Below are positions 3,206 through 50,255 of a DNA stretch of 64,000 nt, piece by piece. The stretch comes from an uncultured Planctomycetaceae bacterium (GTDB lineage: Bacteria; Planctomycetota; Phycisphaerae; Sedimentisphaerales; UBA12454): NCBI GenBank assembly GCA_964449435.1, contig CAYUYR010000004.1, positions 20,059-84,058 on the forward strand. The letters run 5' to 3'. Below the pieces are notes generated by a model. It saw nothing but the letters and a program-made list of their open reading frames with translations, had not been told where the DNA came from and did not search any database. Numbering within the stretch: position 1 is the first letter of the stretch; each line of letters starts with the position of its first letter. The position numbers and the translations under genes were made by a program.

Positions 3206-3858
3206 TTACTACATTAACCGCAGAAAAAAAATTCGATTGGAATCTGCCCCTGACCGACAAGGCCGCCGATGTGCTGAGAGCCTTCGGCATAACGGTACAG
3301 AGACTCAAAAGCGGCGCGATAACGCATAGCTGCGAAATAAAATTATCCGCAGGCCAAATTGCTTATATCACAGGCCCGTCTGGAAGCGGAAAAAGCGTAC
3401 TGCTGAGAGAGTTTTTCAGCACCTTTGACAACGATAAAAAAATCAACATCGACGATATACCCCTGCCCGACGACAAAACCACCGTCGATTGCATAGAGGG
3501 AAGTTTTCTCGAGACTCTCAGAACATTAAGCAGCGCAGGCCTTACGGATGTTTTCTGCGTCCTTAATTCACCGGCAACTTTGAGCGAAGGACAGAAATAC
3601 CGATACCGAATAGCAAAGGCAATCAGCAGTGATAAGCAGTTTATCTTTGCAGATGAGTTCTGCTCGAATCTCGACAGGGTAACCGCAGCGGTAATCAGCC
3701 ATAACCTGCGTAAATTCGCGTCAAAGACCGGAAAGGCATTTATCCTTGCAAGCTCACACGACGATTTACTGAGCGATTTGCTGCCTGAAGTCATCGTCAT
3801 CAAACATTTAGCAGGCGATGCGGAACTGATTTATAAAACTCTAAGCACTAAACCATAA
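3202..3858 (+). CDS. Stand-alone soluble ABC-type ATPase
   Basis: Walker A GPSGSGKS, signature LSEGQ, Walker B FIFADEF, H-loop SSH; no permease nearby. Confidence 0.85.
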   Translation: MITTLTAEKKFDWNLPLTDKAADVLRAFGITVQRLKSGAITHSCEIKLSAGQIAYITGPSGSGKSVLLREFFSTFDNDKKINIDDIPLPDDKTTVDCIEGSFLETLRTLSSAGLTDVFCVLNSPATLSEGQKYRYRIAKAISSDKQFIFADEFCSNLDRVTAAVISHNLRKFASKTGKAFILASSHDDLLSDLLPEVIVIKHLAGDAELIYKTLSTKP

Positions 3859-3970
3859 ATACTAAACAAATTCAAAATGCTAATTCTCAAATGCTCAAAA
3901 CGGTTTTGAAAATTGATATTTTGGTAATTCGGATTTGTTTAGGATTTAGAAATTAGAATTTAGGATTTTC
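3842..3970. repeat. Heptamer-periodic imperfect inverted repeat (long hairpin)
   Basis: Arms converge on TCAAAAC-G-GTTTTGA; same family as 23801-23940. Confidence 0.75.
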
Positions 3971-3972
3971 TT

Positions 3973-4833
3973 ATGAACTGCACGATAAAAAAATACTTAA
4001 AGATTGTTGAAGGAAATATTGGCGACTATAAGCCTTTAAGCAGATTTCATTACCGCGACTGCAAAACCGGCCCTGTATCAGCTATCTATAAAATTATAGA
4101 TACACATCCAGCTCGTGCCGCGTTATACGGTTGCGGTCGCGCGACTCGTATCGGCTGCGTAGAACGTAAATCGTCATCCAATACGCAGCCGACAGACGTA
4201 ATACGAAACGAGCAGCGCAACCTATCAACGAAAACCGATAATTGTGAACCGGTCGTTGGAATCATCGTTTATTCTATGCCTGCCTGCTCAGTACAGTTGC
4301 GGAACATCGCGACAAAGGGACTGTTCACAAAACTTGGCTCTGCAAACGCAAATATGCAGTTCGTGAACAATAATATCCGCACAATCGCCCGTGTCGTTAT
4401 TGAGCCGCGATACAGAGCTTTGGGCCTTGCTTACGAATTAGTGCAGAAAACAATGCCGATGCTGAATATGCCTTATATCGAGGCTTTAGCGGTAATGGGA
4501 AAGGTCAATCCGTTCTTTGAAAAGGCGGGTATGATGAGATACGAAGCCCGTCAGTCGCCGCGATGTATTCAGCTCACGCAAGCCCTAAGTGCAGTCGGCA
4601 TTGAGCAGTCCGACCTTGCCGATATAGAAAGAACGCACAATATCCTGCGAAGCCTGAATGGAAAACAAAAGGCGTTTATCGAAAAACAGATTACCAATTT
4701 TCTTACAGCTTACGGCAGGAGGGTAAAAAACCTGCCCGACTGTCTAAAGAGAACCGAATTTTTCATCAGCAGATTATCCGACAGACCCGTTTATTACATC
4801 TGGCGAAATGCTGATGTGAAATTGAAAGTATAA
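3973..4833 (+). CDS. GNAT-fold acyltransferase, Mom-like / ABC-ATPase-associated type
   Basis: LSRFHYR N-terminal motif; acyl-CoA-binding motif RTIARVVIEPRYRALGLA; VMGKVNPFFEKAG. Confidence 0.7.
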   Translation: MNCTIKKYLKIVEGNIGDYKPLSRFHYRDCKTGPVSAIYKIIDTHPARAALYGCGRATRIGCVERKSSSNTQPTDVIRNEQRNLSTKTDNCEPVVGIIVYSMPACSVQLRNIATKGLFTKLGSANANMQFVNNNIRTIARVVIEPRYRALGLAYELVQKTMPMLNMPYIEALAVMGKVNPFFEKAGMMRYEARQSPRCIQLTQALSAVGIEQSDLADIERTHNILRSLNGKQKAFIEKQITNFLTAYGRRVKNLPDCLKRTEFFISRLSDRPVYYIWRNADVKLKV

Positions 4834-21683: not shown

Positions 21684-23084
21684 TTATCTCTTTGCCATCG
21701 GTGTATATTCCCGTTTTTCAGCGATGCTCTTGTAAGCCGGCCTGATAATCCGTCCGCCGCTGATAGTTTCCTCGATAATATGAGCGCACCAGCCGGCGAT
21801 TCGGGACATAGCAAACAGCGGAGTATAAAGCTCGGTCGGTATATCAAGCATTCTATAGACGAAACCGGAATAGAAATCCACGTTCGGACAAATCTTTTTG
21901 TCGGATTTCTTGACTCTCTGGAAGATTTCCGGTGCGAGCCTTTCGACCATTTCATAAAGCTCGAATTCCCATTCGATGTCTTTTTCTTTGGCGAGTTTGG
22001 CGGCCTGTTTCCTGATCAGTCCGGTTCGCGGGTCTGAAATCGTATAAACCGCGTGTCCCAGTCCGTAAATCAGGCCTGTGCCGTCGAACGCCTCTTTTTT
22101 GACGATTTTTTCGAGATAATCGGCAACCTGACTTTCACTTTCATAATTCTTCACGTGCCTCTTTATATCTTCCATCATAGCAATTACCTGAATATTCGCG
22201 CCGCCGTGCTTTAAGCCCTTGAGCGAGCCGACAGCCGCGGCAATAGCGGAATAAACATCCGTATCGGAAGAAGTAACCACATGGGTGGTGAAAGTCGAGT
22301 TGTTTCCGCCGCCGTGCTCAGCATGAAGAACCAGGCATAAATCGAGCAGTGCCGCCTCCGTTTTTGTGAATTTTTTATCTGCGCGTATTAGCCTAAGGAA
22401 ATTTTCCGCCGTCGAGAGCTTCTCGTCGGGCGTATGTATATAAAGACTTCGACGGTCGTGGTAATGTCTTTTGGCCTGATAGCCGTAAGCGGCAAAAATA
22501 GGAAATCTGGCAATCAATCCGATGCATTGACGCAGAATATTTCTCATCGAGCGGTCTTCCGGCGTCTTGTCATACGAATACAGCGCAAGAACGCTCCTTG
22601 CCAGCTTGTTCATCACGTTGCTGCTGGGCGATTTGAGAATCATATTCTCGGTAAAGCCTTCCGGCAGATTTCTTTTCCTGCCGAGCATCCGGCAGAATTC
22701 CGTCAAATCCTTTTTCTTCGGCAGTTCGCCGAACAGCAGCAGATACGCCGTCTCTTCGAAGCCGTGTCTTTTTTCCTTCTGAAAACCTGCGACAAGGTCC
22801 TCGATTTCCATACCGCGATACCGCAATCTGCCCTCAATCGGCACTTTTTCGCCTTCGCTCACGATATAGCCGTGCACATCTCCAATTTCAGTCAGGCCGG
22901 CCAATACGCCGGTTCCGTCAGCGTTTCGCAGCCCGCGCTTGACGGCAAATTGCTCGTAAAACTCCGCAGGTATCCGGTTATTATGACGCGCAAATCTGGA
23001 GAGCTTAACCAAAAAAGGGTCTTTCGGGGTTCTTTCGGGTATTATTCCTTCGATGTCCGGCTTTACAATATCTGCCATTTTCAC
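21684..23084 (-). CDS. Citrate synthase (citrate/2-methylcitrate family)
   Basis: LHAEHGGGNNSTF, GLKHGGAN, YGLGHAVY, PNVDFYSG. Confidence 0.93.
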   Translation of the reverse strand: MKMADIVKPDIEGIIPERTPKDPFLVKLSRFARHNNRIPAEFYEQFAVKRGLRNADGTGVLAGLTEIGDVHGYIVSEGEKVPIEGRLRYRGMEIEDLVAGFQKEKRHGFEETAYLLLFGELPKKKDLTEFCRMLGRKRNLPEGFTENMILKSPSSNVMNKLARSVLALYSYDKTPEDRSMRNILRQCIGLIARFPIFAAYGYQAKRHYHDRRSLYIHTPDEKLSTAENFLRLIRADKKFTKTEAALLDLCLVLHAEHGGGNNSTFTTHVVTSSDTDVYSAIAAAVGSLKGLKHGGANIQVIAMMEDIKRHVKNYESESQVADYLEKIVKKEAFDGTGLIYGLGHAVYTISDPRTGLIRKQAAKLAKEKDIEWEFELYEMVERLAPEIFQRVKKSDKKICPNVDFYSGFVYRMLDIPTELYTPLFAMSRIAGWCAHIIEETISGGRIIRPAYKSIAEKREYTPMAKR

Positions 23085-23238
23085 ACCTGCAAATTTAAAA
23101 ATAACGGTTAATTTTTCCGCCCCGCGGAAAGTTCAAATAGTATAACCGCTCAAATTCTTCCGTACAAGAGTCTTCCTTGACTTATTGCTTCTTTTCTGCG
23201 ATACTATCGGTTTAAATTTTTTTGGAGATAATCGACGT

Positions 23239-23793
23239 ATGAAAGCGGCAGAGATGAAAAAGGGGCAAACCGTTCTGATGGACGGCAGGCTTTATACAAT
23301 TATAGACTTCGAGCACGTCAAGTGCGGCAAAGGCGGCGCTATTTATCAGACAAAGCTCAAAAGCGTTACCGACGGCCTGATAAATAACGCAAGAATCCGA
23401 GCGGAGGAAAACATCGAGGAGGCTGAGCTCGACAAACGCAAATACGAGTATCTTTATTCCGATTCGAGCGGTCATATTCTTATGGACCTTGAAAATTACG
23501 ACCAGCTCACGCTTGACGATGACGCTTTCGGCGACGGTAAAAAATATCTAAAGCCCAATACCGCTCTGGCCGTCAGCAGCTATCAGGGCAAAATCGTCTC
23601 GCTCGACCTGCCCAACTCCGTTGACCTTGCCGTGGTCGAGACCCCGCCGGAGATAAAAGGCGCAACAGCAACCGGCCAGCGAAAATCGGCAAAGCTCGAA
23701 ACGGGCGCCATCGTCAATGTGCCGGCGTTTATAAAGGTCGGCGACGTCGTCCGCGTCGATACAAGAACCGGCGAATACGTTACGAGAGCATAA
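23239..23793 (+). CDS. efp: Elongation factor P
   Basis: HVKCGKGGA; PPEIKGATATG..K.AKLETG...VRVDTRTGEY. Confidence 0.93.
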   Translation: MKAAEMKKGQTVLMDGRLYTIIDFEHVKCGKGGAIYQTKLKSVTDGLINNARIRAEENIEEAELDKRKYEYLYSDSSGHILMDLENYDQLTLDDDAFGDGKKYLKPNTALAVSSYQGKIVSLDLPNSVDLAVVETPPEIKGATATGQRKSAKLETGAIVNVPAFIKVGDVVRVDTRTGEYVTRA

Positions 23794-23800
23794 AAATGAT

Positions 23801-23940
23801 AAAATCCGAAGTACGAAATTCTAAATTCGAAACAATATCAAATTACTAAAATTAAAATTATCAAAACTACTTTGTTTTGAGCATTTCAAAATTTGAATTT
23901 TGAATTTGTTTCGGATTTAGGATTTCTAATTTCGAATTTT
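23801..23940. repeat. Heptamer-periodic long inverted repeat
   Basis: AAAATCCGAAGTACGAAATTCTAAATTCGAAAC...TCAAAAC-TACTTT-GTTTTGA...GTTTCGGATTTAGGATTT. Confidence 0.8.
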
Positions 23941-23950
23941 CAGGTTAATT

Positions 23951-24040
23951 ATGGCTCAAAGCGCAATTAGCAAGTTTCTCGTAGAAATCTTCGGTTTGTA
24001 CGTCTTGTTTTACGGGTACTCGGCGATGAAACGATTTTAA
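23951..24040 (+). pseudogene. Orphan duplicate of the secA 5' end
   Basis: MAQSAISKFLVEIFG vs Sec[15 protein letters not shown]; 28/37 nt identical over the AGC...TTCGGTT block. Confidence 0.65.
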
Positions 24041-24128
24041 GTTGTTTTGTAACAGGAAATATCTATAATCAACAGAAAGAAAATAAATGGCTATCTGCAA
24101 AGCCACTAAAACAAGGACAAGTTAGCAA

Positions 24129-25316
24129 ATGAATCAGATAATATTAGACGAAGTGATTAATGATACTGATTATAAAGAATTAGTCATTGGCATAGACCAT
24201 GAATTAAGCGTGAAAGACGAGTTATCGCTTAAAAATCTTTTTGCTAAATTCCCAGAGGAAGAATTTGCGTATGTCTTATCGGGGGACAATTTAACTGTTT
24301 TTGTTAATAGTATAGATCTGGAATTTCTTAAAAAAACAATAAATACTATTAAGGCTGACCAATCAACGCAAGGAATGTCAAACTTACTGGATTCAATTGT
24401 TGCAAATATAGAATCAATTAAAAGTTATGGCTTGAAAGGTAGCAAGAGAGTCTATATCGGTTATAATAAGGAACGCAAAGTACAAGATAGAAAAGCAAAG
24501 GAAATTAACAGGAATCAATACTACTATGCCAATAACAATAATTTTTCCACTATTAACAATACAATTCCAAATAATTTTGAAAACAAAATAATATGTGGTG
24601 ATAGCGCGGATATATTAAAGAAATTACCGGACAATTGTATCGACATGGTTTTTACTTCTCCGCCATATAATTTTGGTCTTGACTACGAATCTAATGAAGA
24701 TGCTCATCATTGGAATAATTATTTTGATAAACTCTTTTTAATTTTTGATGAATGTGTAAGAGTTTTAAAATACGGCGGAAGAATAGTCGTAAACGTCCAG
24801 CCGCTTTTTTCTGATTATATCCCAAGCCACCATATTATCAGCAATTATTTTATGTCAAAAAAAATGATATGGAAAGGGGAAGTGCTTTGGGAAAAAAATA
24901 ATTATAATTGCAAATACACTGCATGGGGCAGTTGGAAAAGTCCAAGTAATCCATATTTAAAATATACATGGGAATTTGTAGAAATATTCGCAAAGGGTGT
25001 ATTGAAGAAAGAAGGCGACAGACAGAATGCTGATATTTCTGCTGATGAATTCAAAAAATGGGTTGTCGGCAAATGGTCTATTGCGCCAGAAAGAAATATG
25101 AAAGACTATAAACACCCTGCTATGTTTCCGGAAGAATTGGCGTCAAGAGTATTAAAGTTATTTAGTTTTAAGAATGACATCGTATTAGACCCATTTAATG
25201 GAGTTGGAACAACGACCTTTGTCGCAAAAACAACTGGTCGCAAATATATTGGAATTGATATTTCCAAAGAGTATTGTGAAAAAGCGGAAATCCGTTTAGG
25301 TTCAACTTTGTGGTAG
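24129..25316 (+). CDS. Amino-DNA methyltransferase (beta class, probably N4-C) with long N-terminal extension
   Basis: DMVFTSPPY (motif IV) precedes VLDPFNGVGTT (motif I); HPAMFPEEL. Confidence 0.9.
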   Translation: MNQIILDEVINDTDYKELVIGIDHELSVKDELSLKNLFAKFPEEEFAYVLSGDNLTVFVNSIDLEFLKKTINTIKADQSTQGMSNLLDSIVANIESIKSYGLKGSKRVYIGYNKERKVQDRKAKEINRNQYYYANNNNFSTINNTIPNNFENKIICGDSADILKKLPDNCIDMVFTSPPYNFGLDYESNEDAHHWNNYFDKLFLIFDECVRVLKYGGRIVVNVQPLFSDYIPSHHIISNYFMSKKMIWKGEVLWEKNNYNCKYTAWGSWKSPSNPYLKYTWEFVEIFAKGVLKKEGDRQNADISADEFKKWVVGKWSIAPERNMKDYKHPAMFPEELASRVLKLFSFKNDIVLDPFNGVGTTTFVAKTTGRKYIGIDISKEYCEKAEIRLGSTLW

Positions 25317-25326
25317 GGAGAAAGTA

Positions 25327-26028
25327 ATGCCGTATAGTGTAGATGAAATCGTGAAAGCCTATGAAATTCTTGTTAAAGGCATTGAAGCGGATGCCACTGA
25401 TGACGAAGAGAGGGCTTTCGGCGGTATTATCCGCGCAGGAAAAGGAAAACTCGTTGAGAGTATGACTAAACACCTTGTTGAAATAGCGTGGAATAGGATT
25501 GGCGGAAATCCCAAACGAATATCTTTTGAAAAGCAAACGTTTAAAATTCCAATAAACAAACCATATATTAAAAAGATTAAGTACAAGGAAGTTAGGGATT
25601 ATATTCTTTCCCATATTACTGATTATTACTACGGCTTAAAAACAGATGTATTGATTTCAATTGATCGTAATGTCGCAATGGCCATTGAATGCAAGGCTTA
25701 TACAGAGAATGCAATGCTGAAACGTATTATGGTTGATTTTACTTTTCTGAAAACTGTTGTTCCTGATGTTGACTGTGTTCTATGTCAATTAGAGAGTCAA
25801 TTAACCGGAGACTATAGCAAGCCTCGCAATAAAACTATTTTTGGCAGTCCATCTACTCACACAATAATGTCGTATTTCGATGTGGATTTACACATCATCA
25901 CTTTGCTTGAAGGAGAGAGAAAAGTGGATGAACCAATCCACAATTTAAAACACTACAAAGATTTAGACAAAGGTGTATTAGAACTCGCCATAACCCCAAT
26001 AAGTGAAATACTAAAGAAACGTCTGTAA
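25327..26028 (+). CDS. Type II restriction endonuclease (PD-(D/E)xK)
   Basis: KTD...AIECK motif; cotranscribed with the MTase; AT-rich. Confidence 0.75.
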   Translation: MPYSVDEIVKAYEILVKGIEADATDDEERAFGGIIRAGKGKLVESMTKHLVEIAWNRIGGNPKRISFEKQTFKIPINKPYIKKIKYKEVRDYILSHITDYYYGLKTDVLISIDRNVAMAIECKAYTENAMLKRIMVDFTFLKTVVPDVDCVLCQLESQLTGDYSKPRNKTIFGSPSTHTIMSYFDVDLHIITLLEGERKVDEPIHNLKHYKDLDKGVLELAITPISEILKKRL

Positions 26029-26118
26029 ATTAGGCAAGTGCCTGCCCATATCCATTCTTGACTTTCAGCTTCTTATGGGCGACATTTGCGGTTTTATATT
26101 ATTTTTTGAAATTATTAT

Positions 26119-29100
26119 ATGACAAGCACAATTAACAAACTGCTCGTCAAACTTTTCGGTTCACGCAACGAAAGGCTCGTCAAGACTTATATGCGCACCG
26201 CGCTGGCGGCAGGAGCATTCGAAGAACAAATCAAATCGCTTGATAATGACGCCTTAAAGGCAAAGACAGCCGAGTTTAAAGCTCGTCTTGCACAGGGCGA
26301 AAATCCCAACCAGATTTTGCCCGAAGCCTTTGCCGTTGTCCGCGAGGCCGCCAGAAGAAACGTTAATATGCGCCATTTCGACGTCCAGCTCGTCGGCGGA
26401 AACGTCCTTTACGACGGCAGAATCGCCGAGATGATGACCGGCGAGGGAAAAACGCTCGTCGCAACACTGGCGGCGTATCTCGTCCATATTACCGGCAAAA
26501 AGGTGCACATCGTTACCGTCAATGATTATCTGGCAAAACGGGACTCCGAATGGATGGGCCCGATTTATAAAGCATTAGGCCTGACTGTCGGCGCGATTCA
26601 GGCCGATATGGAAACGAGCGGCGCCAACCGCAAGGCTCAATACGCCTGCGACATTACTTACGGCACAAATAACGAGTTCGGCTTCGACTATCTCCGCGAC
26701 AATATGAAAGTCTCCGCCGCCCAGCTTGCGCAGGGCCCGCTCGAATATGCGATTGTCGATGAGGTCGATTCGATTCTTATCGACGAGGCAAGAACGCCGC
26801 TGATTATTTCAGGCCCAGCTTTCGACGAGACAAGCAGATATAAAAAAGCAGACGCCGTCGCAAAGCAGATTATAAATATGCAGAGCAATTACGCTCGCAC
26901 AAAACAGCAGCTTGATTCTGCTCAAAGAACCCTCGCCAACGCTCAGGGCGAGCTTTCGGACGCAAGAAGGGCAAAAGACAACGTCCGTATTGAAAAAGCT
27001 CAATCAGTTATCGTTCAAACCGCCTCGGAAATCCAAACTCTCGAAACGTCTCTGGTCTCGGCAAAGCAGTTTTACGAGGTTGAGTATGACCGCAAGGCCG
27101 TCCATCTAAATCACGACGGCCTCGGCGCAGCGCAGGAGCTTGCGGGCGTAGGCTCGTTCTTTACAGGCTCGAATATGGAATGGCCTCATCTGCTTGAGCA
27201 GAGCCTGCGGGCACATATCGTCTTTGAAAAGGAAAAAGACTACGTTGTTATGGACGGCAAGGTTGTGATTGTCGATGAATTCACTGGCCGGCTTATGCAC
27301 GGCAGGCAGTGGAGCGACGGGCTTCATCAAGCTGTCGAGGCCAAGGAAAACGTCACGGTAAAAGAGGAAACCCAGACGCTTGCTACGATTACGCTTCAGA
27401 ATTTCTTCAGGCTTTACGAAAAAATCGCAGGTATGACCGGCACAGCCCTTACCGAAGCGGACGAGTTTATGCAGATATACAAGCTCGAAGTCGTCTCAAT
27501 TCCGACCAATGAGCCTTGCATCCGCGATGATAAAGATGATATGATTTATAAAAGTATTAAGGAAAAATTCAACGCTATCACGGAGGAAATTCACGATACA
27601 AGCGCCGCCGGCAAGCCTGTCCTTGTCGGCACAATCAGCGTCGAAAAAAGCGAGGCAATCTCCAACGCACTTACCAAAAAATACGGCATTGAACACGAAG
27701 TCTTGAACGCCAAGCAGCACGCAAGAGAGGCGTTAATTGTCGAAAAGGCCGGCCATCAATACACCGACCGCGCCGGCAATACCTGCGGCAACGTTACAAT
27801 CGCAACGAATATGGCAGGCCGCGGCACGGACATCAAGCTCGGCCCCGGCGTCGCAGACATCGGCGGACTGCACATCGTCGGCACTGAACGCCACGAGTCA
27901 AGAAGAATCGACAATCAGCTTCGAGGCAGAGCGGGCCGTCAGGGTGACGCAGGCTCAAGCCAGTTCTTTTTGAGCTTCGACGACGATTTAATGCAGCTTT
28001 TCGGCGGGGAAAGAATTCCGAAATTGCTCAGCCTTGTCGGATGGAAAGAAAACGAACCTATATTGCACCCGACAATCAGCAAACAAATCGAAAAGGTTCA
28101 GAAAAAAGTCGAGCAGCGAAACTTCGAGGCCAGAAAAAGCCTGCTCGAATTTGATGAGGTGATGGATTATCAGAGAAAAACCTTTTATTCCCGCAGAAGG
28201 CAGGTAATCGAAGGCATCGGCCTTAAGGAAACAATCACCGCAATGCTCGATTCGACAATCGACAAAACCTGCTCCGATATGCTCGACAAGGATTATCGTT
28301 TCAGATGTGTTGCGGAATGGGCGAAAACTACTTTCGGCGTCGATATCAGCCCGGCCAGAATCGCTGATTACAACGCAGAGCGGATTGAAGAGCTGATAAA
28401 GAAAAACACAAAAAACGAAGCGGCCAATAATATCTCCGTAGCATTGGGAGAATACCTCGAGGATTTCGAAGATAAAAATACCTGGAACATCGAATCGCTG
28501 GTAAAGTGGGCGATGACCGCGTTCAGCGTAAATCTGTCAGGCAGTAAAATCCGGCAAATGACCGCTGAGGAGATTCAGCAGAACCTTATCGAAGCGGCCG
28601 CAGAGCAAATCGACAAAAAAGACTGCTCGATGCTGACGACGTTTCTTGACGGCGATTTCGGAATCAAAACGCTTGTCAGCTGGGCGGACAATAAATTCGG
28701 CATAAAACTTAACATAAACCAGCTAAAGGACTTAAAGTCCCAGCAGATTTACGAAAAACTGTGTCAGGAAGTACAAGCCCTTTACGGGCGCCGCGAAATA
28801 GAGTATCCGGTCGAGTTTGCGCTCAGTATGACCTATCGCGCCGACGGGGTAAATGTCTATTCGTTCGAAAAGCTTGCCGGCTGGGTCAACGACAGGTTCG
28901 ACTCGCAAATTTCCGTCTCTCATCTGCAAAACACGCCTCCCGCCACCATTCATAAAGAGCTTTTGAAAATCAGCGAAGATTATCATTCCATCGGCCTTGA
29001 AAAGGAAATTGACGAAAAACTCGCATCGTCTTCTGCGGAGCAAGTTGCTGAATGGGCAAATAAAAGATTTAAAACAAATTTGCAGTGCGATGATTTCGCA

Positions 29101-29631
29101 TCAGAGCCGCGACCGTCAGGGAGCGGTATATCGACATTGAAAGAAAAATTACTCGAAGTCGGCAGAGACTTTTTGAGAACCGAGCTGACCGAGCTTGAAA
29201 AATATGTCCTTTTGCAGCTTTACGATTCAGCGTGGAAAGACCATTTGTATTCGATGGACCATTTGAAGGAAAGCATCTTTATGCGGGCCTACGCCGAAAA
29301 AGACCCGAAAATCGAATACAAGCAGGAAGGCTTCCGGATGTTCAACGAGATGCTCGATTTGATTGAGGAAAAGGTTACCGATACGATATTCAAGGTTCGT
29401 CTCGAAGCGGGCGCAAGAACACGGAGCGTCTGGCAGGCCGGACAGACAAAACACGAAGAAGTAAGTCAGTTCGAAATGGCCGAGCGTCAAAGAGCCGCCG
29501 CACAAGCCCCGCAGGGCGAAGCAGCCAGAGTCAAACAAATCAAGCTCGACCAGCCCAAAGTCGGAAGAAACGACCCCTGCCCCTGCGGAAGCGGAAAAAA
29601 ATACAAAAAATGTTGCGGCAAAAACGCCTGA
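26119..29631 (+). CDS. secA: Preprotein translocase ATPase SecA, enlarged
   Basis: [40 protein letters not shown] motif [18 protein letters not shown]. Confidence 0.97.
29103..29127 (+). repeat. REP-like hairpin AGAGCCGCGACCGTCAGGGAGCGGT inside secA
   Basis: 24/25 identical to 5917-5941. Confidence 0.75.
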
Positions 29632-30428: not shown

Positions 30429-30767
30429 TCAATTAACCTTTATAATAGATTTTATCTGCCTTTTAAGTTTAGGCAGTTCCTTTTTTACAATGTCCCAGAC
30501 TACGTCAAGTAGAATGCCGAAATAATGATGAACGATTATATTCCGCATACCTATAATCTCATCCCACGGAATTTGAGGATTATCGGTACGGAATGTTTTA
30601 GGTATGCCTCTGGCCGCTTCTCCTATAATCTCGATATTTCTGACTATCGCATCCTGGGTTTTTCGGTCAGTCAAAAAATTATTATAGCGCATACCTTTCG
30701 CGTAGCTAAAAATCCTTTCGATAGCGTCAAGTATATCGAGCAGCCGCAGTTCAGTATGTCGAGACAT
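30429..30767 (-). CDS. HepT-like (DUF86) RNase toxin
   Basis: DAIVRNIEIIGEAA; MRNIIVHHYF (RX4-6H). Confidence 0.9.
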   Translation of the reverse strand: MSRHTELRLLDILDAIERIFSYAKGMRYNNFLTDRKTQDAIVRNIEIIGEAARGIPKTFRTDNPQIPWDEIIGMRNIIVHHYFGILLDVVWDIVKKELPKLKRQIKSIIKVN

Positions 30768-31089
30768 TTATATAATCCTTCATAACCTGCTCTTTGAGTC
30801 TTCCCCGAACAGACGGCATAGTCAAAAGGTCCACATCTCTGCCGAGTATATCTTCGAGCAGTGTTTTCAAACCTAAATATCTCCTGTAAGTCGTTTTGTC
30901 AAATTTGACTACCACGTCCACATCGCTGTTTTTTCTCATATTCCCCCTTGCGGCAGAACCGAAAAGCCCGAGCTGTTTGACACCGAGTTTTTTTATCTGC
31001 CTGCGGTGTAATTGCAGTTTCCGTATAATCGGTTCAGCTTTCATATCTTTTTGAGTTTTACTAACCATATCTTTTCTTATATTGCTCAT
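30751..31089 (-). CDS. MntA-like minimal nucleotidyltransferase antitoxin
   Basis: LFGSAARG...SDVDVVV; GRDVDL. Confidence 0.9.
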   Translation of the reverse strand: MSNIRKDMVSKTQKDMKAEPIIRKLQLHRRQIKKLGVKQLGLFGSAARGNMRKNSDVDVVVKFDKTTYRRYLGLKTLLEDILGRDVDLLTMPSVRGRLKEQVMKDYINVSTY

Positions 31090-46154: not shown

Positions 46155-47198
46155 ATGGAACTTACAGATAATCTAAATATTGTTCAGTTCAGGCCGCTGA
46201 TAACACCCCAGCAGCTAAAGGAAAAATATCCTGAAGACGAGCAGGTCGCTCATCTTATAGCTCAGTCGCGAGGGAGCATTAATGCAATCCTTACGAATGA
46301 AGACAAAAGACGAATTGTCATTACAGGCCCTTGCTCGCTGCACGACAAAAAAGCGACGTATGATTACGCCGAGAGGCTCAAAAAACTTCAGGACAAGGTC
46401 GCCGACAAGCTGCTGCTCGTGATGAGGGCCTATTTCGAAAAGCCGCGAACGACCCTCGGCTGGAAAGGAATGCTGTACGACCCGGAGCTCGACGGCTCGG
46501 ATAATATCGAAGAAGGTTTTAACAGGTCTCGTGAAATTCTGCTCGAGCTCGGCAAAATCGGCCTGCCATGCGCAACGGAATTTCTCGACCCGATTGTACC
46601 GCAGTATATCGCGGATTTGATTTCGTGGGCGGCAATCGGAGCAAGAACGGCTGAATCGCAAATCCACCGCCAAATGGCAAGCGGCTTGTCTATGCCGATA
46701 GGATTTAAAAACGCTACCGACGGCAATCTCACCTCCGCTGTCGATGCCGTCAAGGCGGCGGCAAGTCCCCATTCTTTCCTCGGTATCAGCCGAAACGGAG
46801 AGGTCATAATCGCCGAGACTCGCGGCAATAAATTCGGACATATCGTTATGCGGGGCGGCTCAAGCGAGCCGAATTACTCGGCTGAATATGTAGCTTTTGC
46901 GGGCATACTGCTGAAAAAAGCGGAAATTCCGAACGGCGTTATTATAGATTGCAGCCACGCCAACTCGAACAAGGATTACAGGCTCCAGCAAAACGCCCTT
47001 TCGGATGTCGTCCGGCAGGTCAATGGCGGCACAAAACTAATCGCCGGCGTAATGCTCGAAAGCTTCATAACCGCAGGCAATCAAAAACCCGCTAAATTAG
47101 AGACCCTCGCTTATGGCCAATCTTTAACCGACGGCTGTATCGGATGGGAAGAAACAGAGGAACTTATCGGCATTTTTGCCGATGCGGTAAGATTATAA
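46155..47198 (+). CDS. 3-deoxy-7-phosphoheptulonate (DAHP) synthase, class I
   Basis: GPCSLHD, YFEKPRT, GFKN, DCSHANS. Confidence 0.95.
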   Translation: MELTDNLNIVQFRPLITPQQLKEKYPEDEQVAHLIAQSRGSINAILTNEDKRRIVITGPCSLHDKKATYDYAERLKKLQDKVADKLLLVMRAYFEKPRTTLGWKGMLYDPELDGSDNIEEGFNRSREILLELGKIGLPCATEFLDPIVPQYIADLISWAAIGARTAESQIHRQMASGLSMPIGFKNATDGNLTSAVDAVKAAASPHSFLGISRNGEVIIAETRGNKFGHIVMRGGSSEPNYSAEYVAFAGILLKKAEIPNGVIIDCSHANSNKDYRLQQNALSDVVRQVNGGTKLIAGVMLESFITAGNQKPAKLETLAYGQSLTDGCIGWEETEELIGIFADAVRL

Positions 47199-47233
47199 GA
47201 GCAACAAGTCGAAGCCTATTTTGCCATTCAGGA

Positions 47234-50140: not shown

Positions 50141-50205
50141 GCTGTATCGGCTGGGAAGAAAAAGAGGAGCTTATCGGCATTTTTGCCGATGCTGTAAAAC
50201 TATAA
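50141..50205 (+). repeat. Orphan duplicate of the DAHP synthase 3' end
   Basis: 59/65 nt identical to 47134-47198, including the stop codon. Confidence 0.9.
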
Positions 50206-50255
50206 AAGTGCGGTGATGAGACATCCAACCAACCCAAAAATATCTTATTTTCTTC

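Follow-up and report, generated by a model that had tools for sequence, protein, structure and literature searches.

The start of secA occurs twice at one locus of the genome studied here, a 1.85 Mb metagenome-assembled genome (MAG) of 35 contigs, and a type II restriction-modification (R-M) pair stands between the two copies. Did the R-M pair create the second start when it arrived, or did it enter a locus where this start had already been duplicated? A sequence-only reading of the window (the whole 64,000 nt stretch of DNA that was analyzed) had favoured the former, proposing that an R-M cassette was inserted into the 5' end of secA, brought a secA 5' end of its own from a related lineage and left the resident start behind as an orphan.

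Anatomy of the efp-secA locus

The features of the locus are as follows:

23239-23793, plus strand: efp (elongation factor P), with matches to Pfam EFP_N, EFP and Elong-fact-P_C
23801-23940, no strand assigned: REP-like palindromic hairpin repeat in the gap between efp and the orphan start, with 67 nt arms that are 76% complementary
23951-23995, plus strand: orphan secA start of 15 codons (MAQSAISKFLVEIFG), located behind efp where the ancestral gene began; the ORF continues to 24040
23996-24035, plus strand: signal-peptide region of a chalcone-isomerase-like (Chalcone_3) gene, surviving as a frameshifted remnant joined to the orphan start
24036-24128, plus strand: leader of the R-M unit, AT-rich, containing the left edge of the foreign R-M DNA
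24129-25316, plus strand: predicted type II DNA methyltransferase (MTase), 395 aa, N4/N6 beta class (PF01555, E-value: 2.9e-40; PADLOC MTase_II, E-value: 5.5e-66)
25327-26028, plus strand: predicted type II restriction endonuclease (REase), 233 aa, DdeI family (PADLOC REase_II PDLC03499, E-value: 4e-80, full length)
26041-26118, plus strand: putative replacement secA promoter and leader module, with homology to secA upstream regions of related Phycisphaerae
26119-26160, plus strand: replacement secA start of 14 codons, of an "MT" type seen in the relatives L073, G014 and G023
26119-29631, plus strand: secA, 1170 aa, intact, with all SecA Pfam domains

Apart from opposite-strand ORFs that overlap the MTase and REase genes, the efp-secA interval contains no sizeable ORFs other than these two. 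GC content is 30-37% over positions 23750-26150 as compared to 45-54% in the flanks, so that the earlier description of an AT-rich MTase-REase pair followed by a full secA gene was accurate. The statement that no integrase is present also holds: no tyrosine recombinase (PF00589) match was found on the window's contig, and the three in the genome are all carried on other contigs. No att-like or attC-like ends were found at the R-M insert.

The gene efp is located 5' of secA in 16 of 20 relatives' loci, at a distance of at most approximately 170 nt in 15 of these and of 1.1 kb in G004, a congener. The REP-like hairpin (folding energy -45.1 kcal/mol, z -7.2) has 15 more matches in the genome. Both efp and this repeat are orthologous to their counterparts in the close relatives G010 and L074, where the repeat stands before the working secA start. 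Positions 23741-23918 are approximately 98% identical to L074, and this identity is lost near 23919.

Two secA starts and a remnant of a third gene

The ORF at 23951-24040 encodes MAQSAISKFLVEIFGLYVLFYGYSAMKRF. Its secA-like part forms a direct repeat with the start of the working gene (23959-23996 and 26124-26161; 38 nt, 76% identity, spacing 2165 nt), essentially the same count as the 28/37 nt first noticed by eye. The local alignment of the two starts has a score of 20, which was reached by none of 2000 dinucleotide shuffles (mean 8.9, maximum 17), as had been anticipated for a similarity above shuffled controls; the best score among 416 other tiles of the window was 14. A degenerate secA-start pattern has exactly two occurrences in the genome, both of them here. 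When compared by hand using a codon table, the orphan matches the secA starts in use in G001 and G007 at 39/45 nt, and those of the closest relatives at about 30/45 nt. The expectation that the SecA N-terminus of R-M-free relatives should resemble the orphan was borne out by G006, in which MAQSAISKFLVKIFG matches the orphan at 14/15 residues. These comparisons support the interpretation of the orphan as a genuine secA start kept in its ancestral position. Because it is typical of more distant congeners and not of the closest ones, the orphan may itself have been imported. A second secA start upstream of secA was found only in the window and in G004 among 24 loci.

Following the orphan, the sequence is related to neither secA nor the R-M genes. 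Positions 23987-24035 are collinear with nt 37-86 of an ORF in G004 (ORF206; 39/51, score 22, 0/1000 shuffles as high), and a longer alignment of the window with this ORF spans 80 columns. ORF206 encodes a 206-aa secreted protein that matches PF16036 (E-value: 2.3e-22). The 11-mer GGTACTCGGCG of the remnant was also identified by eye in a second homologue, L080, where it lies at the corresponding LVLGV codons. In G004, a copy of the secA promoter and start is fused to ORF206 and is followed by a promoter and secA, the fusion being intact; the promoter and start before ORF206 match those of secA at 95/122 positions. As the closest homologues of ORF206 have their own, non-SecA N-termini and are found in unrelated contexts, ORF206 is taken to be a fusion. 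The secA/cargo junctions differ: in G004 the secA-like part ends at approximately codon 12-13, and in the window it continues as far as codon 15. G004 has no R-M genes. The claim that the R-M cassette created the orphan is not supported by this arrangement, in which the secA start is fused to a chalcone-isomerase-like sequence both here and, intact, in a congener.

The working secA start has a different history from the gene body. Upstream of it, the promoter and leader module contains a putative -35 sequence (TTGACT, 26058-26063) and, after a 17-nt spacer, a -10-like sequence (GACATT, 26081-26086) that is weak and was not called by a consensus scan. The module is similar to the secA upstream regions of L073 (61/80, score 40, shuffle maximum 18) and G023 (50/71), and no similarity was found to the efp-secA spacer of G010 or to the window's own efp-orphan spacer; a multiple alignment of the module took in genus g4 and G004. 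"MT"-type SecA starts include MTGSTISKFLLKLFG in G014 and MTGGTISRFLVKLFG in G023. The secA body shows 92.1% nt identity to that of G010, the closest relative, which is the best match in each 120-nt window from column 61 onward. Columns 1-33 are rich in mismatches to G010, which then fall to an ordinary level, so that the body is G010-like from approximately codon 15-21 (about column 43-64), and the body tree is ((L074,(L079,(WIN,G010))),(G008,L073)). In the closest relatives (G010, L079 and L074), efp and secA have a simple arrangement with no insert. In L073, which has no orphan start, the same promoter module is preceded by HU and a 124-aa ORF. By alignment, secA is chimeric: its promoter, leader and first 14 codons have been replaced, and its body is native and of the G010 type. 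The replacement module is family-specific, and other lineages of the family carry modules of its type. The gene is translated from the replacement start and probably transcribed from the replacement promoter, possibly with read-through from the R-M genes. Of the proposal that the cassette carried its own secA 5' end, the part concerning a working start of related-lineage type therefore stands, while the R-M pair as its carrier is not supported.

The R-M pair and its limits

The MTase and REase have the homologies expected of a type II R-M system, and their cleavage and methylation activities are predicted on that basis. In the MTase translation, a TSPPY motif precedes DPFNGVGTT, and MTase homologues partnered with the same REase family are also 395 aa in length. 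The REase gene begins 10 nt past the MTase stop codon on the same strand. Its product has no Pfam match and no PDB relative but has 1422 homologues, some of which are named "Type-2 restriction enzyme DdeI" at 58% identity (best non-self match: 78%). The REase might thus recognize CTNAG, a word with an observed/expected ratio of 0.66 in this genome, the third lowest among 16 comparable words.

Its sequence and distribution mark the R-M pair as foreign. None of the 25 other genomes of the family has the REase, and the pair is absent from the efp-secA region in 20 of 20 relatives checked. Metagenomes contain a related MTase-REase unit (75% nt identity) in unrelated contexts and free of secA sequence, as a discrete 2173-bp block with at least five flank combinations. 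As the REase is missing from the family while the promoter and start are specific to it, the R-M genes and the secA piece differ in origin, which, together with the related unit lacking secA, argues against the proposal that the R-M pair brought the secA 5' end. The orphan-remnant fusion on its left is also intact in G004, and the R-M unit can therefore span at most approximately 24036-26040, its left edge being located to within ~90 nt and its right edge to within ~12 nt. Positions 24036-24128 have no significant similarity to ORF206, to relatives' spacers or to related R-M cassette ends.

The related unit is cassette-like and has an attC-like 3' end (ACACAAC ... GTTGTGT, hairpin -28 kcal/mol), recalling integron cassettes that carry R-M genes. 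Unlike this unit, the window unit has no such ends: its flanks have no significant similarity to the attC-like end (757/1000 and 473/1000 shuffles scored equally high), only 12 nt separate the REase stop codon from the secA promoter module, and there is no IntI or attI nearby. An integron gene cassette was rejected on these grounds.

History of the locus and alternative explanations

A probable explanation for these observations is that the locus is a recombination mosaic at the secA 5' end, formed in at least two steps, with the R-M pair having replaced the cargo of an existing slot. The duplicated start is most likely older than the R-M pair, given the R-M-free fusion in G004, the family-specific promoter and start and the different origin of the R-M genes. 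In an older step, or in assembly within another congener, a chalcone-isomerase-like secreted-protein gene would have been joined in frame to the original secA start, with secA keeping a second copy of its promoter, leader and first ~15 codons. The outcome would be a cargo slot between two diverged secA starts, an arrangement that is preserved in G004. In a recent step, a foreign low-GC DdeI-family R-M unit would have replaced nearly all of the cargo gene by illegitimate insertion and deletion, so that it is now flanked by the orphan and ~40 nt of remnant (left) and by the promoter/start module (right). The foreign-to-native switch on the right lies within a conserved FGSRNERLV-coding island (columns 34-64), where a homologous crossover may have occurred; on the left, where identity breaks near 23919 and the genes are fused at 23995/6, the join may have been illegitimate or dependent on short homology. 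We infer the order of events and the mechanism from this anatomy, the likely mechanism being homology-facilitated illegitimate recombination or import of the whole block by double crossover. The predicted state before R-M entry (efp, REP, a secA start joined to an intact chalcone-isomerase-like gene, then promoter and secA) was found in no genome. As the three closest relatives have simple efp-secA arrangements, a two-step history in situ requires several losses or a block import from an unsampled donor.

It is possible, though on balance unlikely, that a single import accounts for the locus: a block with the R-M pair, promoter and secA 5' end would have come from a related lineage and integrated at secA codon 15, stranding the old start, or, in a relaxed version, an unsampled congener would have been the place of assembly of a block that already contained the orphan and remnant. 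Both edges of the foreign-looking stretch fall at one and the same position in secA (TTCGGTT), a single import is a simpler history than three losses in the closest relatives, the orphan resembles the starts of distant congeners, and the L074 near-identity stops just 5' of the orphan, as fits a left crossover there. However, under the strict version the R-M cassette cannot be the source of the left junction between secA and the chalcone-isomerase-like remnant, which is shared with R-M-free G004, the ultimate origins of the REase and of the promoter/start differ, and no donor with the composite was found. Alternatively, an integrase-less family of mobile cassettes could target the secA 5' end, with circles of cargo, promoter and start mimic inserting at TTCGGT by site-specific or short-homology recombination and the recombinase encoded elsewhere, for instance by one of the three tyrosine recombinase genes on other contigs. 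The different cargos between two secA starts in the window and G004, the similar sequence past their left junctions and the other cargo before the same module in L073 are consistent with this; nevertheless we regard it as improbable. The common left-end sequence is the native signal peptide of the chalcone-isomerase-like family and not an element end, the fusion points lie ~6-15 nt apart, L073 lacks an orphan, and the promoter/start module of the window has only 61% identity to that of G004, the former being nearer to that of L073 and the latter to its own second copy. Furthermore, a junction scan of two large collections recovered only G004 and chance matches, and the identical core repeat never exceeds 7 nt.

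R-M units without mobility genes are known to enter genomes by "insertion with long target duplication" and by "substitution" (Nobusato et al. 2000; Furuta, Abe & Kobayashi 2010, PMC2853133). The window resembles these classes in its type II R and M pair without transposase or integrase in an insert of less than 20 kb, as considered by Furuta et al., in its target-derived direct repeats of more than 30 bp, in the absence of the insert from close relatives and in a GC content unlike that of the host. Duplication of 38-45 nt of the secA start in situ by the R-M unit, with later divergence of the copies, is nonetheless very improbable. Published target-duplication repeats are near-identical (e.g. 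44/46 or 47/47; PMC2853133), whereas the 38-nt repeats here are 76% identical although the GC content of the R-M DNA has hardly approached that of the host, are of different lineage origin and are not copies of a single empty-site target. The selected, working copy is aberrant while the free copy is canonical; the promoter module accompanies the right copy only, being missing from the left copy and from empty-site relatives; and the left copy runs into the remnant of an earlier cargo gene. Substitution of the cargo of an existing slot is thus a better fit to this case than target duplication by an R-M unit. An assembly chimera, conceivable in a MAG of 35 contigs, or a chance resemblance is hardly credible: the repeat similarity exceeded that of every shuffle, the orphan has counterparts in the real secA starts of congeners, the exact repeats at which assemblers make joins are missing from the junctions, and G004 has a sister structure in an independent assembly.

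Displacement of gene ends that leaves orphans has been described for Rhs, CDI and T6SS effector-immunity loci, and homology-facilitated illegitimate recombination was proposed as its mechanism (Kirchberger et al. 2017, PMC5361080; de Vries & Wackernagel 2002). There, as would apply here by analogy of mechanism, a conserved segment serves as the site of recombination for incoming DNA that has its own copy of it, the displaced resident copy persists as an orphan, the process does not require an integrase, and arrays or slots accumulate. Those loci concern orphan immunity genes and polymorphic toxin genes affected at their 3' ends, while the window involves the 5' end and promoter of an essential housekeeping gene. 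A further parallel is prophage e14 in icd of E. coli K-12, with its icdC pseudogene (Hill et al. 1989, as cited in PMC13626634). According to that account, the insert supplies a diverged copy of the interrupted end, which keeps the housekeeping gene intact, the displaced original end remains as a short pseudogene at the far side of the insert, and recombination between the two copies can remove the insert to give a chimeric gene. The e14 prophage, as described there, has its own integrase, a defined att core and a 3' target, in contrast to the contig without an integrase and the replaced 5' end and promoter seen here. Integrase-mediated gene-end integration of the e14/icd or CIME type was rejected, as the contig has no PF00589 match and the sole shared exact core is the 7-nt TTCGGTT.

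More speculatively, and with considerable doubt, the first ~15 codons of secA and the FGSRNERLV-coding island may constitute an integrase-free gene-capture slot in a Phycisphaerae clade, in which cargo is gained, swapped and lost by interspecies recombination. Its cargo would be the R-M pair in the window, the chalcone-isomerase-like protein in G004 and perhaps HU with the 124-aa ORF in L073, and GTA-like particles might deliver the DNA. If so, each cycle would rewrite the SecA N-terminus and promoter, which would explain the differing SecA starts among genomes with 83-92% identical secA bodies. The locus would document the entry of an R-M system via cargo substitution and not via target duplication of its own. 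With three cargos, two orphan starts and SecA N-termini that are hypervariable even between close relatives, it offers a concrete site at which to study integrase-free gene capture, where an essential single-copy gene has a promoter and N-terminal codons that appear to be exchangeable between species and to shelter foreign cargo without an integrase. If the slot is recurrent, it would be a 5'-end counterpart to the well-known 3'-end integration hot spots.

Layout of the efp-secA locus

In this Phycisphaerae MAG (G000; 1.85 Mb in 35 contigs, with the window corresponding to C4:20059-84058), a restriction-modification (R-M) pair lies between a short ORF behind efp, here called the orphan start, and the full-length secA gene.

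Features of the efp-secA locus (window positions)
21684-23084, minus strand: citrate synthase, left of efp
23239-23793, plus strand: efp
23801-23940: hairpin repeat, long, AT-rich and palindromic, between efp and the orphan start
23951-24040, plus strand: 29-codon ORF (orphan start), beginning MAQSAISKFLVEIFG
24129-25316, plus strand: methyltransferase (MTase), 395 aa
25327-26028, plus strand: restriction endonuclease (REase), 233 aa
26119-29631, plus strand: secA, separated from the 233-aa ORF by a 90-nt spacer

The sequence-only reading had described a stranded secA-type start after efp, and this start was found to be real. A repeat search identified a 38-nt direct repeat (76% identity) between 23959-23996 and 26124-26161, and the alignment of the two starts had a score of 20, which none of 2000 dinucleotide shuffles reached (maximum 17) and which exceeds that of the best other tile of the window (14). 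The same reading had described a low-GC insert with no integrase; GC content is indeed 30-37% across ~23750-26150 and 45-54% outside, and no recombinase is present on the contig. An Rfam scan of 23000-26400 returned nothing credible. Downstream of secA, the minus strand carries two small ORFs that overlap, both of 112 aa (30429-31089); by their sequences they look like a putative HEPN/DUF86 toxin and nucleotidyltransferase antitoxin pair.

Among 20 relatives' loci, efp was found upstream of secA in 16 (within ~170 nt in 15 and at 1.1 kb in the congener G004), and no R-M genes were identified in the region checked of any of the 20. If the orphan is an old secA start, the SecA N-termini of such relatives should resemble it, and this is the case: congener proteins begin MAQSAISKFLVKIFG (G006), MAQSAISKFLIKIFG (G004), MAQSAISKLLVKIFG (G001) and MAQNAISKFLVKIFG (G007), and by hand count on a codon table the orphan is identical to the secA starts of G001 and G007 at 39/45 nt. 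The hairpin repeat (~140 nt, 67-nt arms, -45 kcal/mol, z -7.2) has 15 further matches in the genome (e.g. G000:C4:23908-24027, C1:205871-205941 and C20:4447-4600). Because this hairpin and efp are orthologous to those ahead of the working secA start in G010 (the closest relative) and L074 (JGI contig Ga0378408_0026341), the orphan occupies the ancestral secA start position. Identity to L074 increases from ~88% in the efp body to ~98% over 23741-23918, a stretch that takes in the 3' end of efp and the greater part of the hairpin, and breaks near 23919, ~30 nt before the orphan; the pattern resembles a short tract of recent recombination that stops just 5' of the orphan.

Cargo at the site in relatives

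G004 (PLMU01000009, a Phycisphaerales MAG) carries ORF206 in its 1.1-kb efp-secA gap (contig L054/L077; L054:462-1082, minus strand). ORF206 is a 206-aa chalcone-isomerase-like protein (Chalcone_3, PF16036) that begins MVQNAMSKFLIRILCLHALF, and its gene has another copy of the secA promoter and leader ahead of it: the promoter and start of ORF206 match those of secA in the same genome at 95/122 positions (score 58, shuffle maximum 18). As its nearest homologues (67-72% identity) have N-termini of their own, such as MRNPIRIICFIMALLGL, and are found in unrelated contexts, ORF206 is a secA start fused to the native signal peptide of the Chalcone_3 family. A candidate third, degenerate secA-start relic between efp and ORF206 (GCACAAACAGCGCAATTAGTAA) was dropped, as 62/1000 shuffles scored as high.

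The orphan aligns with ORF206 over 80 columns, and the similarity does not stop at 'FG': 39/51 positions agree between 23987-24035 and ORF206 nt 37-86 (score 22, 0/1000 shuffles), and the 11-mer GGTACTCGGCG also occurs at the corresponding codons of L080, another member of the family. The sequence 3' of the orphan is thus what remains, frameshifted, of a chalcone-isomerase-like gene rather than R-M DNA, which confines the R-M unit to ~24036-26040 (boundaries approximate).

A survey of other cargo, as had been proposed for this site, identified ORF206 in G004 and different cargo in metagenomic contig L073, where an HU-like gene followed by a 124-aa ORF separates efp from the promoter module also seen in the window; L073 has no orphan start. 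Each of these two L073 genes (3737-4480) has a similar block of ~60 nt ahead of it (…ataggt…atatg[c/t]ag[a/g]gttatatgggaaa…), which suggests a duplicated regulatory module. Among 24 loci, the secA start was found again ≤2.6 kb upstream of itself in the window and in G004 only. When the 401 genomes of the order were searched with a secA-start pattern, only G000 had two matches at one locus; second matches in other genomes sit on other contigs and were rejected as further doubled starts. A degenerate junction pattern (ATHYTCKGYTTGYACGYCTTGTTT) searched in genome-contig and metagenome-contig collections returned only G004 itself, one Enterovibrio match and one Bacteroidetes-like chance match.

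Origins of the R-M pair and of the working secA start

The MTase matches PF01555 and PADLOC MTase_II, while the 233-aa protein matches PADLOC REase_II over its full length (E-value: 4e-80), has no match in Pfam or PDB and has 1422 homologues, some of them named DdeI. Based on these matches, the pair is predicted to be an intact type II system, probably with CTNAG specificity (from 58% identity to DdeI-named proteins). CTNAG occurs 5178 times in the genome (both strands counted). Its avoidance was discarded as a residence clock, the observed/expected ratio of 0.66 not being distinctive, and REase-driven 'homing' into CTCAG (secA codons 2-3 of close relatives) was set aside because, with thousands of CTNAG sites, cleavage would not be locus-specific.

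The R-M genes originate outside the family; the replacement promoter and start are specific to it. A donor lineage within the family was rejected: the REase is absent from 25/25 other species genomes, and its nearest homologue (78% aa and 75% nt identity, limited to coding sequence) belongs to a discrete 2173-bp MTase-REase block, none of whose metagenomic copies adjoins secA. This block recurs as an exact unit in metagenome contigs L059-L066 with at least five left/right flank combinations; it opens with GTTGTGT and closes with ACACAAC-N43-GTT, which contains a stem, and this hairpin end resembles an integron attC. In L061 it comes after another R-M pair (MTase and R.HinP1I-like). By analogy, terminal inverted repeats or an attC-like end were considered for the R-M unit of the window, but neither flank showed significant similarity.

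The 78 nt 5' of the present secA ATG (26041-26118) contain a putative promoter module (TTGACT-17-GACATT) similar to the secA upstream regions of L073 (61/80) and G023 (50/71); similarity to the G010 efp-secA spacer or to the window's own efp-orphan spacer was not found. Transcription of secA is predicted to start ~7-10 nt beyond 26086. Within secA, mismatches to G010 are dense in columns 1-33 and reach an ordinary level after ~column 43-64, no sequence is nearer than G010 in any later secA window, and the secA-body tree is ((L074,(L079,(WIN,G010))),(G008,L073)), where WIN is the window. With an L073/G023-like 5' module and a body nearest G010, secA is chimeric, its promoter, leader and ~14 codons being of one type and its body of another. 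The transition between the two lies where FGSRNERLV is encoded, which is the gene's first island of strong conservation. A promoter-like sequence of efp (23177-23205; TTGACT-17-GATACT, extended -10 TG) has a consensus identical to that of the conserved secA promoter module in relatives, so part of the module similarity reflects the organism's general promoter form.

History of the locus

The sequence-only reading held that the R-M cassette brought its own secA 5' end from a related lineage and, by inserting into secA, left the orphan behind. In this strict form the claim is not supported, as the left junction is common to G004, which has no R-M genes, and the orphan runs into the chalcone-isomerase-like remnant. 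Given R-M genes from outside the family, a promoter and start that are specific to the family and a left junction that also exists in an R-M-free genome, we consider it probable that the duplicated secA start is older than the R-M pair, to which most of an earlier cargo gene would have given way. In a relaxed version of the cassette model, an unsampled congener would have assembled the whole composite, which then arrived by a single import; this would fit the lack of any insert in the three closest relatives, the resemblance of the orphan to distant rather than close congeners and the end of the 98% L074 tract (23741-23918) ~30 nt before the orphan; we give it a low probability.

In-situ long target duplication by the R-M unit (Furuta et al. 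2010, PMC2853133) is contradicted both by the 26041-26118 module, which has no counterpart in the efp-orphan spacer or G010, and by the ORF206-like remnant behind the orphan. A dedicated site-specific cassette family at the secA 5' end is unlikely: the left-end sequence shared by the window and G004 is merely the cargo's signal peptide, their promoter modules are only 61% identical, their fusion points lie ~6-15 nt apart and the contig encodes no recombinase.

As to mechanism, the most economical route would be for incoming related DNA to cross over once within the conserved secA island and to be joined at its other end illegitimately or through short homology. One-sided-homology displacement leaving orphans has been proposed for T6SS and Rhs loci (PMC5361080). 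Recombination between the two secA starts would delete the cargo and yield a hybrid start. The locus is structurally like that of e14 in icd with its icdC relic (PMC13626634), but it has no integrase and it is the 5' end of the gene that is affected. Elsewhere in the window, the gene at 46155-47198 has its 3' end copied in a 68-nt direct repeat (90% identity; 47134-47201 and 50141-50208), which brackets ~3 kb with two opposite-strand genes and no integrase; this is a structural parallel to the secA locus.

In the tight clade of G000, G010, L074, L079, G008 and L073, secA bodies are 83-92% identical at the nucleotide level, while the first 12-15 codons differ, giving five different SecA N-termini (starts include MPQGRISRLLVRLFG; one start is found in two genomes) in addition to the orphan. 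The secA 5' end is hypervariable in this clade. In G004, the intact, secreted ORF206 protein takes both its expression signals and the start of its signal peptide from the duplicated copy of the secA promoter, leader and first ~10-12 codons, a clear case of a gene fusion that captures the start of a housekeeping gene.
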